Shown: positions 11,638-60,463, counted from the first letter of the stretch. The stretch is 64,000 nt of DNA from Candidatus Pacearchaeota archaeon (GCA_017609405.1 JAFCDZ010000001.1:24880-88879); one strand, 5' to 3'. Notes: generated by a model from the letters alone, not told the origin. Numbers and translations are program-made.

Positions 11638-12326
11638 TTTTCTACCTCTAATTTAACTTTACCAATTAAAATATAAATAAGCCCCATAAAACTTCTAAGA
11701 ACTTTCTTCTTAGAATGATTAAAATCAGTAATTAATCTATAAAACCATTCTAGACCCATAAAAGACCATATTTTTGGAGCTTCTTTTTTATTTCCTAATA
11801 AAAAATCAAAAGCAGCTCCGACAACAAACATTGTCTTTCTCACAAAAGGATAAATCATATTTGCAAGGATTTCTTGTTTAGGACTTCCAATAGCAAACCA
11901 AATAAAATCTGGATTGAATGTTTTAACTTTCCTAATAACCCCTCTGATAGTCCTATTATCAAATTCTATACCCCCTATAAAAGGCAAATCAAAAAAAGAC
12001 ATCTTCATAATAGGAATTCCTGTAAGCTTACTTAATTTATGAATATCCTTTTTTGAAAGACCCAAAAAAAGATGTTTCTTATTCTTAGCATAGGAAGAAA
12101 GAAGAAATTTCTTAGTAAAAGAAGGTCCTCTTCTTTGAGAAATCCCAAGAAAAAGAGATAAGATTCTCCCATCTGGAAAATTTAGATTATAATTTTTAGA
12201 GATTAAAGCCCTATATTTTGAATTATTAAAATACCACCATACATTATAAAAATTAAAAAAATTGAAAATTTTTTTTTGATGTACAAGCTCCTCTGGATTA
12301 TTTGGCAAAAAATAAAGTTTTTCCAT
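11634..12326 (-). CDS. WecB/TagA/CpsF-family glycosyltransferase (GT26)
   Basis: IWFAIGSPKQE and MGLEWFYRL motifs, characteristic of GT26. 230 aa. Overlaps the upstream gene. Confidence 0.8.
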   Translation of the reverse strand: MEKLYFLPNNPEELVHQKKIFNFFNFYNVWWYFNNSKYRALISKNYNLNFPDGRILSLFLGISQRRGPSFTKKFLLSSYAKNKKHLFLGLSKKDIHKLSKLTGIPIMKMSFFDLPFIGGIEFDNRTIRGVIRKVKTFNPDFIWFAIGSPKQEILANMIYPFVRKTMFVVGAAFDFLLGNKKEAPKIWSFMGLEWFYRLITDFNHSKKKVLRSFMGLIYILIGKVKLEVEK

Positions 12327-14119: not shown

Positions 14120-14857
14120 CTATTTAAAAATCCTTTTATAATTTTCTTCAACCTGTTTTTCAATCTCTTTTAAAGAAATTTTTTTAATTTCTGCAATTTT
14201 TTTGTAGCTTTCAATTACATTCGCAGGCTCATTATTTCTTTTTTTAAATGGATGAAGAAAAGGTGAATCTGTCTCGCAAAATAATTGCTCTAATGGAACA
14301 ATTTCTACAACTTTTTGAAAATGTTGGCTATAAGTTATATTTGTAGGTATGCTAAAAAACCATCCATTATCAATAATTCTCCTTACTAATTTTAATTTGC
14401 CTGAAAAACAATGCATAATTATTTTTTTATAATTAAATTTTTCAAGAAGCTCTATTGCAATTTCCTCTGCTTTTCTTGAATGGATTATGATTGGTTTATC
14501 TAATTCTATTGCAAGTTTTATGAATTTTTCTAAATTCTTTTTTTGTTTTTCAATTAAAGAACACTCTTTTAAATCTAATCCAACCTCACCAATTCCAACA
14601 ATTAAAGTTTTATTTTTTCTTATAAATTCAATCTCTTGCTCCAGTTCTTTTTCAGAAAGCTTAAGAGCATCACAAGGATAAATCCCAAGACAAGCTTTTA
14701 TTTCATTAAACTTCTTTGCTAAATCAAGTGCGAATCGGTTTGTTTTTTTGTCTGTCCCGCAAGTTAGAATTATTTTTACATTGTTCTTTCTTGCATTTTC
14801 TATTTTTTCATTAACTGGTTTACAAATCTCGAGGTGTGAATGAATATCAATAAACAT
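14120..14857 (-). CDS. tatD: TatD-family metal-dependent hydrolase/DNase
   Basis: MFIDIHSHLE N-terminus and conserved His/Asp pattern. 245 aa. Confidence 0.85.
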   Translation of the reverse strand: MFIDIHSHLEICKPVNEKIENARKNNVKIILTCGTDKKTNRFALDLAKKFNEIKACLGIYPCDALKLSEKELEQEIEFIRKNKTLIVGIGEVGLDLKECSLIEKQKKNLEKFIKLAIELDKPIIIHSRKAEEIAIELLEKFNYKKIIMHCFSGKLKLVRRIIDNGWFFSIPTNITYSQHFQKVVEIVPLEQLFCETDSPFLHPFKKRNNEPANVIESYKKIAEIKKISLKEIEKQVEENYKRIFK

Positions 14858-14879
14858 TTCAATATGGGCTCATTTACAA

Positions 14880-14897
14880 TGGGCGCTGAGGGAATCG
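14880..14897 (-). repeat. Direct copy (17/18 nt) of the 3' terminus of tRNA-Trp, 69 nt downstream of the tRNA in minus orientation
   Basis: tgggcgctgagggaatcg compared with tgggcgcggagggaatcg at 14967-14984, immediately followed by gggcctcac. Confidence 0.85.
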
Positions 14898-14966
14898 GGC
14901 CTCACAAAGTTCGACCTAGTTCGTCTATCGCTACACTCATAGCCAAACTAAACCCAAAGGGTTCGA

Positions 14967-15037
14967 TGGGCGCGGAGGGAATCGAACCCCCGTCTGGCGG
15001 TCTGGAGCCGCCTGTTTTACCATTAAACTACGCACCC
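14967..15037 (-). tRNA. tRNA-Trp (anticodon CCA), no intron, CCA not encoded
   Basis: Reverse complement GGGTGCGTAGTTTAATGGTAAAACAGGCGGCTCCAGACCGCCAGACGGGGGTTCGATTCCCTCCGCGCCCA folds as a cloverleaf: 7-bp acceptor, D arm GTTT/AAAC, anticodon stem GGCGG/CCGCC with loop CTCCAGA, T arm with TTCGATT loop. Confidence 0.8.
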
Positions 15038-26095: not shown

Positions 26096-27418
26096 TTGAA
26101 GGTAAATATAAACATGCCTTATGACATTATTATTGGAAGAAATGAGGATGATAAAAAGAGGTTTGGAAAAAAGGGCTTAATCTATATTGGAAAAAGTTAT
26201 GTAAAAATGGGCAGATATACCTCTTTATCAAATAATGTATTCATGGATGTAGCAAGAAGTCATGTTGTATTAATTGCTGGAAAAAGAGGAAGTGGAAAAT
26301 CATACAGTTTAGGGGTAATTGCAGAAGAGCTAAGCACACTTTCAGGAGAAGAAAAACAAAATATAAGTGCAGTTATATTTGACACAATGGGAATTTATTG
26401 GACAATGAAATTTCAGAATGAAAAAGATAAAGAATTATTAAGCAAATGGGAATTAGAACCCCAAAACATCCCAATAAGAATTTTTGTCCCTTTTGGGCAT
26501 TTTGATAAATATCTTGAAAAAGGAATCCCTATTGATGAAAAATTTGCAATAGATGTTTCAGAGATAAAAGCTGAGGACTGGATAAATTTATTTGAACTAG
26601 AACTAATTGACCCTGTTTCTATTTTAATACAAAAAACACTCTCAAAGTTAGGAAAAAAATTTTTTATCCGAGACATAATTGAAGAAATAGAAAAAGATAA
26701 AGAATCAGATAAGAATACAAAAAACGCTGCAAAAAGCCTTTTCTTAGCAGCAGAAACTTGGGGGATTTTTGCAACACCTGAACAAAAACCAATAAGCATT
26801 GATGAAATAAGTTCTGGAGGAAAAACAAATGTAATTGATTTAAGTGTGTATAATTCAATTGGAAGTTTCAACATAAGGGCATTAGTAATTAGTCTGGTTT
26901 CAAGAAAACTCTTCAATGAAAGGATGGAATACAGAAAAAAAGAGGAAATTGAAGCAGTATCAAAAGGATTAGACTATTTTAATAATGAAATAACAAGAGA
27001 AAAACCTCTTGTTTGGATTTTTATAGATGAAGCTCATGAGTTCTTGCCAAACGACGGCAAAACAATTGCAACAGATGCTTTAATTCAATTACTAAGAGAA
27101 GGCAGACAACCAGGAGTTTCTGTTGTTCTTGCGACTCAACAACCTGGAAAAATCCATACCGATGTAATGACTCAATCAGATATTGTTATCTCCCACAGAG
27201 TAACTTCTGCTCAAGACCTAAAAGCACTGAATAACATAATGCAATCATATATCTTAGAAGACATACAAACCCAGATGAATAATCTTCCAACACTAAAAGG
27301 TTCTGCAATAATCTTAGATGATAATTCAGAAAGAATTTATTCAATGAGAATCAGGCCAAGATTTACATGGCATGGAGGAGAAGCTCCAACTGCAGTTAAA
27401 GAAGAAAAGGAGTTTTAA
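26096..27418 (+). CDS. HerA/FtsK-like P-loop ATPase (DUF87-type)
   Basis: Walker A GKRGSGKS, Walker B-like IFIDEAHEF, C-terminal ATQQPGKIHTDVMTQSDIVISHRVTSAQD, typical of HerA/VirB4-like ATPases. 440 aa. Confidence 0.6.
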   Translation: MKVNINMPYDIIIGRNEDDKKRFGKKGLIYIGKSYVKMGRYTSLSNNVFMDVARSHVVLIAGKRGSGKSYSLGVIAEELSTLSGEEKQNISAVIFDTMGIYWTMKFQNEKDKELLSKWELEPQNIPIRIFVPFGHFDKYLEKGIPIDEKFAIDVSEIKAEDWINLFELELIDPVSILIQKTLSKLGKKFFIRDIIEEIEKDKESDKNTKNAAKSLFLAAETWGIFATPEQKPISIDEISSGGKTNVIDLSVYNSIGSFNIRALVISLVSRKLFNERMEYRKKEEIEAVSKGLDYFNNEITREKPLVWIFIDEAHEFLPNDGKTIATDALIQLLREGRQPGVSVVLATQQPGKIHTDVMTQSDIVISHRVTSAQDLKALNNIMQSYILEDIQTQMNNLPTLKGSAIILDDNSERIYSMRIRPRFTWHGGEAPTAVKEEKEF

Positions 27419-27447: not shown

Positions 27448-27619
27448 CAATGTTCACGTTAAGAAAATTTCTTTCTAAATAAAAAAGAATTATATTAATA
27501 AGAAGAAATTTTTAGTGAGCTTGCGAATTGGAGCAATGTTCACGTTAAGAAAATTTCTTTCTAAATAAAAAAGAATTATATTAATAAGAAGAAATTTTTA
27601 GTGAGCTTGCGAATTGGAG
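27448..27619. repeat. Two tandem copies of an 86-bp unit, flanked by a duplicated copy of the 3' terminus of the upstream ATPase gene
   Basis: Unit caatgttcacgttaagaaaatttctttctaaataaaaaagaattatattaataagaagaaatttttagtgagcttgcgaattggag at 27448-27533 and 27534-27619. Then 27616-27650 repeats 27377-27411 (ggagaagctccaactgcagttaaagaagaaaagga), the last codons of the 26096-27418 gene. Confidence 0.85.
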
Positions 27620-27687
27620 AAGCTCCAACTGCAGTTAAAGAAGAAAAGGAACTTTGAGAAATTTAGTTAATTAGAGCTGAGCCATAA

Positions 27688-33153: not shown

Positions 33154-33194
33154 ATAAAGAGATAATACTAAGGATATAAATAATTATCTAAAAA

Positions 33195-33212
33195 ATGGAC
33201 CCGGAGGGAATC
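33195..33212 (-). repeat. Perfect 18-nt direct copy of the 3' terminus of tRNA-Arg, 132 nt downstream of the tRNA in minus orientation
   Basis: tggacccggagggaatcg at 33195-33212 equals 33345-33362, followed by gggcctcac as at the other two tRNA loci. Confidence 0.85.
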
Positions 33213-33344
33213 GGGCCTCACAGCAACACTGAAGCTCGACCTAATTCGTCTACTCCCTTCAGTCGTAGCCAAATAGGCCTCATATCAAAGATATTCGACC
33301 TGCTTCGCCCAAGCGTGGTCAAAGCAAACCTAAAGGTTCGATTA

Positions 33345-33416
33345 TGGACCCGGAGGGAATCGAACCCCCACCAGCCGGGCCGAAACCGGATATTCTATCC
33401 ATTAAACTACGGGTCC
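33345..33416 (-). tRNA. tRNA-Arg (probable anticodon TCG), CCA not encoded
   Basis: Reverse complement GGACCCGTAGTTTAATGGATAGAATATCCGGTTTCGGCCCGGCTGGTGGGGGTTCGATTCCCTCCGGGTCCA. Perfect 7-bp acceptor, T arm with TTCGATT, anticodon loop TTTCGGC. There is one mismatch at the top of the anticodon stem, so the anticodon call is less certain. Confidence 0.7.
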
Positions 33417-33682
33417 AATCTAATAAAGAAGATAAGGTTTTTTAATTTATTCATAAGACAATTTAGTTGAAAAATTCGTCTTAGAAATTAATTCATACAA
33501 CCAAAGGAGTTAGTAAAAAAGTTTCACATCATTATCAGTAATAAAACATCTTGCTCAACAAGCTAAAAATTAAAGAGCTTGTTAAACCCTAACTAAATGC
33601 TGACCACGCCAAAATTTATCGCACTAACACTTCAATATTTTCAAAACCAAAAAAATAAAAATAGAAAAAAACATAAAGAGAA

Positions 33683-36345: not shown

Positions 36346-36810
36346 TCACTTTTTCAATCTTCTTGCCTTTGGAATAAAATTAGTTATCTTATTTTCAGAC
36401 GCTTTTCCTGTTCCCAAAAAATCATCTCCAGATTTCATGATTAAAAAATCTCTCTTTCCAGTTGATATAAGAAGCTCTTGGCCTTTCATCCATTCAAAAA
36501 CTTCATTTTCAGAAAGCTCATAGATATTCTTCGAAATTTGATCTTTCAACAATTGACTACCCTCAATACTTAATCTTATCTTATCATTTTGTATTTTTCC
36601 AAAATAAACACCAATTCTATCAATGTCAAGAAAATCAAGTAGTTTAAGCAACTCCTCTTTGTTAAGATTACCAGTAAAAAGATAAATCTTACCTTCATTC
36701 CTCTGAACAAGCAATCCATCAAGAGCCTTAATACCAAATTGCTCCTTAAGTTTATTAATAAACTGTTTTTTCTCCTCTTCATTCAAAATCTTTAGTTTAG
36801 ATTCTCTCAT
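36346..36810 (-). CDS. Possible PUA-domain RNA-binding protein (Nip7-like?)
   Basis: 154 aa. The Gly-rich C-terminus (ISTGKRDFLIMKSGDDFLGTGKA) resembles a PUA fold. Weak. Confidence 0.3.
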   Translation of the reverse strand: MRESKLKILNEEEKKQFINKLKEQFGIKALDGLLVQRNEGKIYLFTGNLNKEELLKLLDFLDIDRIGVYFGKIQNDKIRLSIEGSQLLKDQISKNIYELSENEVFEWMKGQELLISTGKRDFLIMKSGDDFLGTGKASENKITNFIPKARRLKK

Positions 36811-36827
36811 CTTATGACACCTCCATT

Positions 36828-37106
36828 CACCTCCTTGAGTTTCCTAAATTTGGCGATGAAAAATCCTTCTGCTCAGGACCCTTCATTGGGATTAATACCT
36901 CCTTCTAACTCTCTAACTTTCTTAAATTTGGCAATGAAAAATCCTTCTGCTCAGGACCCTTCATTGGGATTAATACCTCCTTCTAACTCTCTAACTTTCC
37001 TAAATTTGGCAATGAAAAATCCTTCTGCTCAGGACCCTTCATTGGGATTAATACCTCCTTCTAACTCTCTAACTTTCCTAAATTTGGCAATGAAAAATCC
37101 TTCGGT
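36828..37106. repeat. Tandem array, about 3.6 copies of a 78-bp unit, equal to the last 26 codons (including stop) of the Nop2/Sun gene
   Basis: Period 78 (unit starts at 36873, 36951, 37029, plus a partial copy at 36828-36872). On the minus strand each unit encodes AEGFFIAKFRKVRELEGGINPNEGS*. The gene-terminal copy is 37029-37106. Confidence 0.9.
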
Positions 37107-38045
37107 ATCATTGTCTTGAGGATAGATTCTTCTACAAAGCCTAACTCTCGAATCAAAAGAAACACCCTCCCACTCTAAAATACCCTCACGAGACTTTAAT
37201 TCTTTTGGAAGTTCAGGTTCTATAATCTCAATACTATCGCCCAAAAACCCAAGAATATCACTAACAACTCCTTCATTTTCTTCTGGAGCATGTGTACAGG
37301 TGCTGTAAATAATCTCCCCTCCTTTTTTAAGCAACTTAAATGCACTTAGAAATAATCTTTTCTGAATCCTTGGCAAACTTTTAACAGTCTTAATGTTCCA
37401 CATAATATAAGTCTGATAAGAAGAACGTAGAGTTCCTTCCCCAGAGCAAGGAGCATCTATAAGTATTTTGTCAAATTTGAATTCTGGATAATTTTTTAAG
37501 AACCTGTTGCAAAAAGCAGAACCCTCCTTTCTTGTCAAAAGAACATTTGCAACACCGCATCTTTCAAGATTAGACGCAAGAATTCTTAATCTTCCCAAAC
37601 TAATTTCATTTGCAAAAATTACTCCTTTATTTTTCATCTCTGAAGCAAGTTGCGTTGTTTTGCTTCCTGGTGCAGCGCATAAATCCAAAATTCTTTCTCC
37701 GGGCTTTGGTTTAAGGGCAATTACTGGAAGCATTGATGCAAGCTCTTGAATATAATAATATCCCAATAAATGCTCTAATGCTCTTCCAAGCTCTCCTGGC
37801 TCAAGTTCATTTTCAACAATCATAACTTCTGAATGCTCTTTCCATGGTTGAGAAATTTTCCATCCTTTATTTTCTAATCTTTGTTTCAGTTTTTCAGGAG
37901 CTATTTTTAAAGTATTACACCTAAAAGATTTAACTGGAGGGACCTTAATAATTTCAAGATACTTCTTAAAATCTTCTCCAGAGAGAAGTTTTTTCATTCT
38001 TTCAAGAAATAAAAGTTTTAATTCAGGAGGCTTTCTCTGGCTCAT
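37029..38045 (-). CDS. NOL1/NOP2/Sun-family RNA cytosine-C5 methyltransferase
   Basis: SAM motif DLCAAPGSKTTQLA and catalytic Cys motifs (DAPCSGEG; YSTCT). 338 aa. Confidence 0.85.
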   Translation of the reverse strand: MSQRKPPELKLLFLERMKKLLSGEDFKKYLEIIKVPPVKSFRCNTLKIAPEKLKQRLENKGWKISQPWKEHSEVMIVENELEPGELGRALEHLLGYYYIQELASMLPVIALKPKPGERILDLCAAPGSKTTQLASEMKNKGVIFANEISLGRLRILASNLERCGVANVLLTRKEGSAFCNRFLKNYPEFKFDKILIDAPCSGEGTLRSSYQTYIMWNIKTVKSLPRIQKRLFLSAFKLLKKGGEIIYSTCTHAPEENEGVVSDILGFLGDSIEIIEPELPKELKSREGILEWEGVSFDSRVRLCRRIYPQDNDTEGFFIAKFRKVRELEGGINPNEGS

Positions 38046-60196: not shown

Positions 60197-60243
60197 AAAC
60201 CAAAGGTTCGAATCAGAATTAATAATGCGGGAGACAGGATTCG
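60197..60243 (-). repeat. 47-nt direct copy of the tRNA-Leu 3' terminus (18 nt) plus its 3' trailer (about 29 nt), about 152 nt from the original
   Basis: aaaccaaaggttcgaatcagaattaataatgcgggagacaggattcg compared with 60349-60397 (one extra c and one extra g in the original), followed by gggcctca. Confidence 0.85.
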
Positions 60244-60379
60244 GGCCTCATGGCGATTTCTTAAATCGACATTGACAAAATCTTTGATTTTAGTCTTGTT
60301 ATAAACATTCGACCTGATACGCTTACTCACTTCGTTTGTAATCATATCAAACCCAAAGGGTTCGAATCAGAATTAATAA

Positions 60380-60463
60380 TGCGGGAGACAGGATTCGAAC
60401 CTGCGCAGGCACTAAGCCACAGGATCTTAAGTCCTGCCCGTTTGACCGCTCCGGCACTCCCGC
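60380..60463 (-). tRNA. tRNA-Leu (anticodon TAA), long variable arm, CCA not encoded
   Basis: Reverse complement GCGGGAGTGCCGGAGCGGTCAAACGGGCAGGACTTAAGATCCTGTGGCTTAGTGCCTGCGCAGGTTCGAATCCTGTCTCCCGCA. Anticodon stem CAGGA/TCCTG, loop CTTAAGA, class II variable arm, T loop TTCGAAT. Confidence 0.75.

Follow-up and report, generated by a model that had tools for sequence, protein, structure and literature searches.

The DNA considered here is a stretch of 64,000 nucleotides (nt) from a Candidatus Pacearchaeota archaeon (GCA_017609405.1 JAFCDZ010000001.1:24880-88879), referred to in full length as the window, and the subject is a small structured sequence, called the element below, that lies between the 3' end of a tRNA gene and a second, partial copy of that same end. 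At the tRNA-Arg gene an initial annotation had noticed a direct repeat of the tRNA 3' end, and this repeat is real: CGATTCCCTCCGGGTCCA(T) occurs on the minus strand at 33344-33362 and again at 33195-33213. Its measures needed revision, the exact length being 19 nt instead of 18 and the gap between the two 18-mers 131 nt instead of 132, while the second 18-mer occupies 33196-33213 and had been placed one base off, at 33195-33212. The second 19-mer starts 149 nt downstream of the first and is followed by TTTTTT and then by the promoter of the gene for the flap endonuclease FEN1. Exact repeats of at least 15 nt that lie within 300 nt of each other and are not of low complexity are rare, numbering 0-2 per shuffled window. 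The modules between the two copies are designated H, S and K, and the locus comprises, from the tRNA downstream:

33345-33417, minus strand: intact tRNA-Arg(TCG) (ARAGORN; Rfam tRNA model, 61.7 bits)
33344-33362, minus strand: copy 1, positions C56-A73 plus T74, the functional tRNA 3' end, with GGTT before it
33326-33343, minus strand: H module, AATCGAACCTTTAGGTTT, whose stem A covaries with T-loop position 59 across loci
33302-33325, minus strand: S1 hairpin (GCTTTGACCACGCTTGGGCGAAGC), predicted by RNAfold
33276-33300, minus strand: K1 hairpin, GGTC-GA-ATATC TTT GATAT-GA-GGCC
33243-33275, minus strand: S2 hairpin region (TATTTGGCTACGA...GTAGACGAATT), homologous to S of the tRNA-Trp element (34/42 identical)
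33214-33241, minus strand: K2 hairpin, GGTCGAGCTTCAGTGTTGCTGTGAGGCC, of a long subtype, ending in GGCC right before copy 2
33195-33213, minus strand: copy 2, an exact 19-nt duplicate of C56-A73 plus T

Within H, AATCGAACC is the reverse complement of GGTTCGATT in its own tRNA (positions 52-60), and AACC and GGTT of the same module also make a small hairpin. Two segments delimited by AGGTCGAR and RTGAGGCC had been reported in the spacer and are both present (AGGTCGAA at 33294-33301 with ATGAGGCC at 33276-33283, and AGGTCGAG at 33235-33242 with GTGAGGCC at 33214-33221). Their description as two tandem units holds in so far as there are two S-K modules, which belong to different subtypes, but there is only one H and no copy of the tRNA end between them. 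The module said to be shared with the tRNA-Trp spacer is likewise genuine, the 34 identities over 42 aligned positions giving a local score of 47 against a maximum of 24 in 500 shuffles.

A common architecture at three tRNA genes

All three tRNA genes of the window (Trp, Arg and Leu) carry the same downstream architecture, the Trp and Leu cases being additional to the one described initially. Their features are the following, where R1 denotes the covariance model introduced below:

14967-15037, minus strand: tRNA-Trp(CCA) (ARAGORN, Rfam), with copy 1 (positions 56-73) at 14967-14984
14898-14966, minus strand: Trp element, a single H-S-K with H at 14950-14966, S at 14918-14949 and K at 14898-14916 (R1, 51.9 bits)
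14879-14897, minus strand: Trp copy 2, with one mismatch (C66 to A, at 14887)
60380-60463, minus strand: tRNA-Leu(TAA) (ARAGORN, Rfam), with copy 1 (positions 56-73) at 60380-60397
60244-60379, minus strand: Leu element, with left segment TTATTAATTCTG, H at 60349-60367, S at 60316-60348 and K at 60244-60314 (R1, 51.9 bits)
60197-60243, minus strand: Leu copy 2 (60226-60243), repeated left segment and slightly decayed second H (60197-60213)

The order of modules in the window is tRNA, 0-14 nt of AT-rich sequence, H, S, a single A, K and a copy of C56-N73 with a little trailer. H has the form (G)AWTCGAACC(C)-loop-(G)GGTTT, the first half of which is the reverse complement of positions 52-60 of its own tRNA, and it follows that tRNA in sequence: AATCG accompanies a T-loop CGATT, and ATTCG accompanies CGAAT. 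S is a hairpin of 7-13 base pairs with a lineage-specific sequence, and K has the form GGTC-GA-[stem-loop]-GA-GGCC, a plain helix with symmetric tandem GA, which in the Leu element bears a branched apex of 58 nt. The duplicated tRNA end measures 19 nt with one mismatch at Trp, and the exact repeat at Leu reaches 39 nt. Across the 64 kb, the sequences TGAGGCCCGA, TCGAACCYTTWGGKTT and AGGTCGAR are confined to the elements, apart from one match with two mismatches.

Occurrence in other DPANN archaea

One genome per GTDB species and JGI metagenome contigs were scanned for the pattern AGGTCGA-N(3-33)-TGAGGCCCGAWTCC, which yielded 41 loci in the former and 61 in the latter (identified by L numbers where needed). 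Eighty loci of 48-74% G+C, from unrelated bacteria and with no common context, were set aside as presumed chance matches, and the one that was examined, L015, has no tRNA. The 22 AT-rich loci, 18 of them non-redundant, are Nanoarchaeota, Pacearchaeota or Woesearchaeota contigs, and in these every match lies immediately 3' of a tRNA gene and in the same orientation. Outside the window the occupied tRNA types are Thr-GGT, Ser-TGA, Arg-CCT, Arg-TCG, Leu-TAG, Leu-AAG, Leu-CAA, Gln-TTG, Gln-CTG, Lys-TTT and Gly-TCC, and the total amounts to 21 element-bearing tRNA genes (three in the window and 18 at other DPANN loci) of at least 12 anticodon types. Since H and S lie outside the search pattern, their presence in the fetched loci is independent confirmation.

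The left junction GGTT|CGA and the right junction GGCC|CGA are found in 21 of 21 copies each, a constancy to which the scan pattern itself contributes. The repeat begins at C56 (or at 59, if CGA is counted as part of the element) and ends 0-5 nt past N73 in 15 of the 21 loci, being longer in four; as an exact match it measures 18-23 nt in 15 copies and 39-83 nt in four, where it reaches through the left segment or H or makes a full tandem unit, and it is decayed in the remaining two. A start set by modification-limited reverse transcription, halted at m1A58, was considered and set aside, the alternative starts at 56 and 59 being ambiguous in this respect. Position 74 is T in both copies at 19 of 21 loci. 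Because positions 56-73 and 1-5 nt of native trailer stand on both sides of the insert, the upstream tRNA stays intact. The inserts are 64-146 nt long across all 21 copies and have no open reading frame (ORF) inside. Their left end is variable, with 0-24 nt of AT-rich filler (about 95 nt in L062), and in L066, L052, L064 and L075 H is shortened to GAGAACC, with loss of stem A.

A left-end motif, AAT(T)CT(N)GAT before TYGAACC, is common to elements at Leu tRNAs (window Leu, L052, L056 and L104); it spans genomes and Leu isoacceptors and is missing at other tRNAs, S and K being genome-specific instead.

Insertion polymorphism and dynamics

Orthologous loci were fetched via the gene for ribosomal protein L18e, which follows tRNA-Leu(CAA) in L099. 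In the order RpoD-tRNA-Leu(CAA)-L18e, the site is filled in L099, where copy 2 is followed by the native flank TAAACTTTATAAACC...TTTTACCTGCGAGTTAA, and empty in L114 and L115, where a homologous promoter and leader come directly after the tRNA. In the Leu-Arg(CCT)-Gly(TCC) cluster beside SecDF, in L018 Arg is followed by a K-type element and Gly by a variant, and L113 and L114 have only a promoter spacer of 57-58 nt, homologous to the flank past copy 2 in L018. In nine loci whose choice did not depend on the element, K-type elements were absent by R1 from all 16 ARAGORN-detected tRNA genes, compared with three out of three in the window. As the orthologous loci of related genomes are empty, the element is an insertion. 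Synteny around FEN1 was also considered as a route to empty tRNA-Arg sites and was abandoned, the relatives not being syntenic and having no tRNA there.

The variable parts of S and K are 89-90% identical between copies at different tRNAs of one contig or sample (L066 Leu-AAG and L099 Leu-CAA; L057 and L060), against a median of 54% for all pairs. This near-identity, the empty orthologous loci and the recurrence of one module order behind 21 tRNA genes bear out the proposal of the initial annotation that the spacers share an origin, through gene conversion or because a small element transposed or integrated. Its counter-proposal, an ordinary promoter or terminator motif occurring regardless of tRNAs, is not what was found: R1 matched only next to tRNAs, always in tRNA orientation, with no other copy in about 254 kb and none in another 143 kb of related loci (some 400 kb searched).

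The two copies of the tRNA end have different fates. Copy 2 decays (C66 to A at Trp in the window, C66 to AA in L099) and copy 1 keeps its complementarity to the 5' strand of the tRNA, copy 2 thus being a dispensable, decaying duplicate. The inserts themselves are also dynamic, as seen in L004 and the 95%-identical L026 (tRNA-Ser-TGA), which differ by an extra 28-nt T-run and H after copy 2 in L004, by an inverted S hairpin loop (TCAAAC versus GTTTGC) and by a replaced K apex, and in L057, which holds two full tandem units. L031 (about 2290-2305) and L069 (about 1410-1425) agree at about 99% of positions over tRNA-Gln, the element and copy 2, and a few nt later all homology is gone, which makes this a breakpoint, by rearrangement or integration, at the duplicated end of the tRNA.

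At two loci the most distal T-arm-to-3'-end fragments match another tRNA. They lie at 1750-1990 of L064 (minus; ...CCTCTCTCCTGCA) and at 10020-10110 of L057 (minus), the latter fragment, GAGG|TTCGAATCCTGGCCTCTACA, coming from a tRNA other than the functional upstream gene. Because these fragments differ from the functional upstream tRNA, they suggest that the tRNA allele was replaced by recombination within the T-loop repeats.

Other small inserts, unrelated in sequence, also have repeats of tRNA 3' ends, with junctions elsewhere in the T-arm and in some cases nested T-arm-like fragments. They occur at L018:2660-2750 (minus, Gly), L066:4631-4730 (Gly), L113:255-293 (minus, Leu-AAG) and L031:3016-3170, and further cases are a 'type 2' array at Leu-CAA in L064, a third copy in L104 (3032-3072) and an intron-bearing tRNA in L031. 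Given the existence of these other insert types, the 3' ends of tRNA genes are a general landing zone in these archaea.

Conserved fold

RNAfold returns the same perfect four-way junction as the minimum-free-energy fold of most copies, the Trp element of the window included, and this fold uses the first nucleotides of copy 2. Stem A is formed by GAWTCG pairing with C56-C61 of copy 2, hairpin H' by AACC with GGTT, and S and K complete the junction; stem A and H' together are a double-stranded image of the T-loop, from which S and K emerge exactly at 55^56. The covariance model R1 was built from the 21 copies, after which 24 hits were realigned. In this alignment a standard pair is present in 91% of pair cells, against 78% in shuffles (none of 500 reaches 91%) and at most 50% with slid partners. 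Compensatory changes on both sides affect six of seven S pairs, one stem-A pair flips from U-A to A-U along with T-loop position 59, and one inner K pair covaries; S and K are also recovered by RNAalifold from an unfitted MAFFT alignment. Because G.U pairs are found in the predicted S stems (24 among 197 pairs) and the folding energy is lower for the sense than for the antisense strand in most copies, the tRNA-sense strand is the one to which the fold belongs, whether in the form of RNA or of single-stranded DNA.

Comparison with known families

Rfam gave tRNA matches only, both when the window was searched at the gathering threshold and when the element regions of seven loci were searched at E values of 1-10. 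Small ribozymes (hammerhead, hairpin and others) and C/D and H/ACA guide RNAs found no fit by eye or in Rfam, and a kink-turn was rejected for K, which lacks the 3-nt bulge. Among 2.9 million viral contigs there was no match to a pattern of K plus T-loop, and the matches to the H pattern were in coding sequence and look like chance, with no true attP counterpart. A full-text literature search, motif strings included, found no description of the element.

The element shares with miniature inverted-repeat transposable elements (MITEs), REP/REPIN sequences and IS200/IS605-related palindrome-associated transposable elements (PATEs) a small, non-coding, hairpin-rich and multi-copy nature, genome-specific variants and a presumed mobilisation in trans, and a Y1 transposase gene is present at one related locus (L120); it differs from them in having no terminal inverted repeats, a variable duplication of about 19 nt where theirs is short and fixed or absent, an exclusive location at tRNAs and a single orientation. 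Derivation from a MITE or DNA transposon was rejected on its ends (AT-rich and then GAWTCGAACC on the left, ...TGAGGCC on the right), which are not inverted copies, and on its duplication of at least 18 nt. Casposon or Cas1-type insertion is characterised by terminal inverted repeats, a 14-15-bp duplication and cas1 and polB cargo; here cargo and inverted termini are both lacking, and the duplicated stretch again measures at least 18 nt. Diversity-generating retroelements, retrons, integron attC sites, IS200/IS605, IS91, casposons and Xer-type elements were compared by their features, and each fails on duplication, ends or cargo. A split or permuted tRNA gene was dismissed too, the upstream tRNA being complete (Rfam 59-69 bits, ARAGORN call).

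Origin and possible route of insertion

The reading to which these observations lead us, on balance and by a narrow preference, is that of a family of small, ORF-less, structured and non-autonomous insertion elements in the 3' part of tRNA genes of Pacearchaeota/Woesearchaeota-type DPANN archaea, a family that is apparently undescribed. The element is probably mobile. With no internal ORF, and with no reverse transcriptase, integrase or transposase among the 46 longest ORFs of the window, it is taken to be non-autonomous, and it would be selfish.

If the element does move, the route that would fit best is RNA-mediated and target-primed, although we would put its chances somewhat below even. 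Four features recall such a route: a right junction that is precise, a left end that varies, a duplication whose end falls among the first nucleotides of the native trailer, and the fold on the sense strand. The element would be transcribed by read-through from the tRNA promoter, and its transcript would fold into the four-way junction, with closing helices that imitate a double-stranded T-loop. The antisense strand of a tRNA gene would be nicked in the T-loop, and the 3' end at the nick (...GGAWTCG) would anneal to CGAWUCC after K in the transcript; copying would then traverse K, S and H in turn and leave a 5' end variably truncated or supplied with filler, and a second nick just past the tRNA end would produce the duplication of positions 56-74. 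Annealing of this kind would also account for the clustering of copies on tRNAs with similar T-arms, such as Trp and Arg of the window, which have GGGGGTTCGATTCCCTCCG in common, or the Leu isoacceptors, several of which are occupied. The same product could be made at the DNA level by a recombinase or transposase with a staggered cut of about 19 bp.

Short interspersed nuclear elements (SINEs) and other non-autonomous retroposons of eukaryotes insert by target-primed reverse transcription. The present elements resemble SINE-type retroposons in being short, non-coding and cloverleaf-like, in their precise 3' junction and variable 5' end with a target duplication (18-83 nt here), in the similarity of copies within a lineage and in an expression that would depend on a tRNA-type promoter; unlike them, they borrow this promoter from the upstream tRNA, have no A-rich tail and occupy one strict position in tRNA genes. 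To our knowledge no SINE-like retroposon of this kind is known in Archaea, and the full claim that these would be the first, as read-through cloverleaf transcripts copied by target-primed reverse transcription, is in our estimation unlikely.

Several observations weigh against a retroposed, or more generally a mobile, element. Neither the 46 longest window ORFs nor 132 ORFs from element-bearing loci include a reverse transcriptase, and the elements end in GAGGCC at C56, a retroposon tail, A-rich or otherwise, being absent. In about half of the copies a T-run of four or longer lies between copy 1 and H, where much of the read-through required by an RNA route should stop, and no severely 5'-truncated solo copy devoid of H is present among the copies found. 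Gly-TCC and Leu-TAG are occupied in several genomes, which could mean long retention or function. The scans demanded AGGTCGA...TGAGGCCCGAWTCC, and the conservation of K and of the junctions in the fetched loci is therefore partly by construction. Finally, the geometry of the repeat, which starts in the T-loop and stops a few nt beyond the tRNA, is shared by integrase attachment (att) cores.

Because of this T-loop core geometry, an integrase-type origin is the main rival, though we consider it doubtful. The copies would be miniature or remnant integrative elements, installed by a tyrosine-type integrase of a DPANN virus or plasmid with CGAWTCC as the T-loop overlap and the repeats as attL and attR; the element would supply a replacement tRNA 3' end, and H-S-K would be leftovers of attP arms or a satellite mobilised in cis. 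Williams is said to have defined, in 2002, a T-loop sublocation class of integrase att sites whose repeats start in the T-loop and reach a few nt beyond the tRNA 3' end, and an identity block of this kind is classic for tRNA-targeting integrases. Identity here starts at exactly one position (55|56), as at a strand-cleavage site, other inserts with repeats from 59/60, 62/63 or 49/50 suggest several recombination systems, the homology of L031 and L069 stops just past copy 2, and L057 and L064 have distal fragments with a different tRNA-like 3' end; the L064 remnant, however, misfits the 5' strand of the present tRNA, which points to homologous replacement rather than integrase exchange. The likeness to integrative elements that target tRNA genes (for general background see PMC9897764) further extends to a repeat made of the tRNA 3' part from the T-loop, an intact tRNA with a decaying partial copy downstream and occasional tandem arrays, but those elements differ from the present ones, which have no integrase or cargo between the repeats and an RNA-like conserved fold. 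No integrase lies in or beside any copy, the Phage_integrase genes of these loci being conserved chromosomal synteny after S9; kilobase cargo is present in none of the 21 copies (64-146 nt), and no viral or plasmid counterpart was found, with no match in 2.9 million viral contigs. S-K cores that are nearly identical are found at tRNAs whose 3' ends differ, each repeat fitting its own tRNA, unlike an attP-borne repeat. A double-stranded circle of about 90 bp, moreover, would be too stiff for recombinase synapsis.

A host-functional RNA appears less probable still: either an intron in the T-loop, which would be excised from C56 of copy 1 to the end of K, with copy 2 as the 3' exon and H as the splint, or a small RNA that tRNA-processing enzymes would free from the tRNA co-transcript, such as a tRNA-like RNA or a 3' fragment serving as backup or in repair. 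The conserved fold with compensatory changes and G.U pairs on the transcribed strand is consistent with such an RNA, as are the constant location downstream of a tRNA promoter in the same orientation and the guide-like pairing of H with the sequence flanking the 55/56 junction on either side. GGCC can pair with GGUU (52-55) or GGUC at 19 of the 19 loci, with CGA after each, in the manner of the centre and bulges of an archaeal bulge-helix-bulge (BHB) motif. As with BHB introns, extra sequence stands at a T-loop position of an archaeal tRNA gene, and introns of related sequence have been described from different tRNAs elsewhere. Splicing of tRNA introns does occur in these organisms, and split and disrupted tRNAs are known in DPANN archaea (PMC6349945). 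However, when all equivalent cut positions (55-77) were tried at 19 loci, only the central GGUU:GGCC helix and the CGA bulges emerged, and there is no complete BHB, since wherever the cut is placed the outer helices form on average 1-2 of 4 pairs. Splicing would only reproduce the tRNA that copy 1 provides without it, and in contrast to BHB introns and split or permuted tRNAs the upstream tRNA is complete without splicing, the 3' 'exon' is duplicated and decaying, and presence is polymorphic. The changes in copy 2 (A66 at Trp, and L099) would break the acceptor stem, GAGAACC-type copies lack stem A, a T-run often separates tRNA and element, no Rfam family and no C/D or H/ACA boxes are found, and relatives manage without the element at orthologous tRNAs (0 of 16 tRNA genes at the independently chosen loci). 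Taken together, the empty orthologues, the decay of copy 2 and the lack of a BHB make a functional intron or small RNA less likely. A second novel reading, rated below the SINE-like one, would make the element a cis-encoded 'spare 3' end with splint' for rebuilding T-loop-cut tRNAs by splicing endonuclease and the RNA ligase RtcB. The explanation to which we give least credence dispenses with mobility and invokes independent partial tandem duplications, by slippage or unequal exchange at the palindromic T-loop core (TTCGAA), followed by gene conversion. Tandem arrays or extended repeats (L057, the L064 type 2 array, L004 and window Leu) and the hairpin-loop inversion between L004 and L026, which reveals hairpin dynamics at the DNA level, speak for it; it leaves unexplained the source of the non-tRNA modules S and K, the recurring H-S-K order and GGCC|CGA junction behind at least 12 tRNA types in many genomes, and the 90% identity of copies at unlinked tRNAs of one contig.

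Neighbouring genes and other features

The window has a G+C content of 29.7% and contains housekeeping genes of archaeal type, among them FEN1 (adjoining the Arg locus), GatB/GatE, a family B DNA polymerase and deoxyhypusine synthase. The protein homologues of FEN1 are labelled Pacearchaeota or Nanoarchaeota by their sources, the top non-self match being 73% identical. On these grounds the window belongs to an AT-rich DPANN archaeon that has no close sequenced strain. A TatD gene begins just 20 nt past Trp copy 2 with no T-run between (window 14857-14897), and for this reason TatD may be co-transcribed with tRNA-Trp and the element, or may have a promoter inside the duplicated region. Two further repeats were noted in the window. 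A 78-nt tandem repeat in three copies (36840-37100, with 66-nt identical cores starting at 36856, 36934 and 37012) sits between an ORF for an RsmB/F methyltransferase (37029-38045, minus) and a PUA-domain ORF (36346-36810, minus), which abut directly in the relatives L042 and L043. An exact 35-nt direct repeat, GGAGAAGCTCCAACTGCAGTTAAAGAAGAAAAGGA, is found at 27377-27411 and 27616-27650, 239 nt apart.

Among the related loci a conserved gene order comprises S9, a small Recombinase-domain protein (sometimes with Resolvase or HNH), a Xer-like Phage_integrase and a HAD hydrolase, seen at L099:5776-6540, L104:275-601 and 981-1313, L057:3312-3704 and, downstream of S9, in L113-L121. It forms an odd conserved pairing of a serine-recombinase-derived domain beside a tyrosine recombinase, regardless of the tRNA element. 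The serine recombinase (a gene combining Resolvase and Recombinase in L099, with fragments in L104 and in L057) was considered as a lead and judged unrelated, its neighbourhood being the same with or without the element. A gene for an IS200/IS605-type Y1 transposase lies between S13 and S4 in L120 (6191-6598, minus), where the close relative L121 has a different ORF. Several tRNA genes have long introns of 18-128 nt (L062:10848-10938; L064:~12060-12200; L075:2240-2375 and 2437-2560; L031:2815-3015), and some of these genes were miscalled or missed by ARAGORN and recovered by the Rfam tRNA model.

Implications for the biology of DPANN archaea

The mobile DNA of DPANN archaea is almost unexplored. 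Partial tRNA copies and T-arm-like fragments can mislead the tRNA annotation of metagenome-assembled genomes, the genome-specific S hairpins could act as strain markers, and the decaying copy 2 keeps older states of the tRNA acceptor stem. The safe-harbour problem is solved neatly, in that one nucleotide position of an essential and universally conserved RNA gene is hit and the gene is kept by duplication of its end. If insertion were RNA-mediated, target-primed retroposition would be extended to Archaea; if it were recombinase-mediated, the element, with about 70 nt and a 19-nt repeat, would represent a minimal substrate for a T-loop-specific enzyme.

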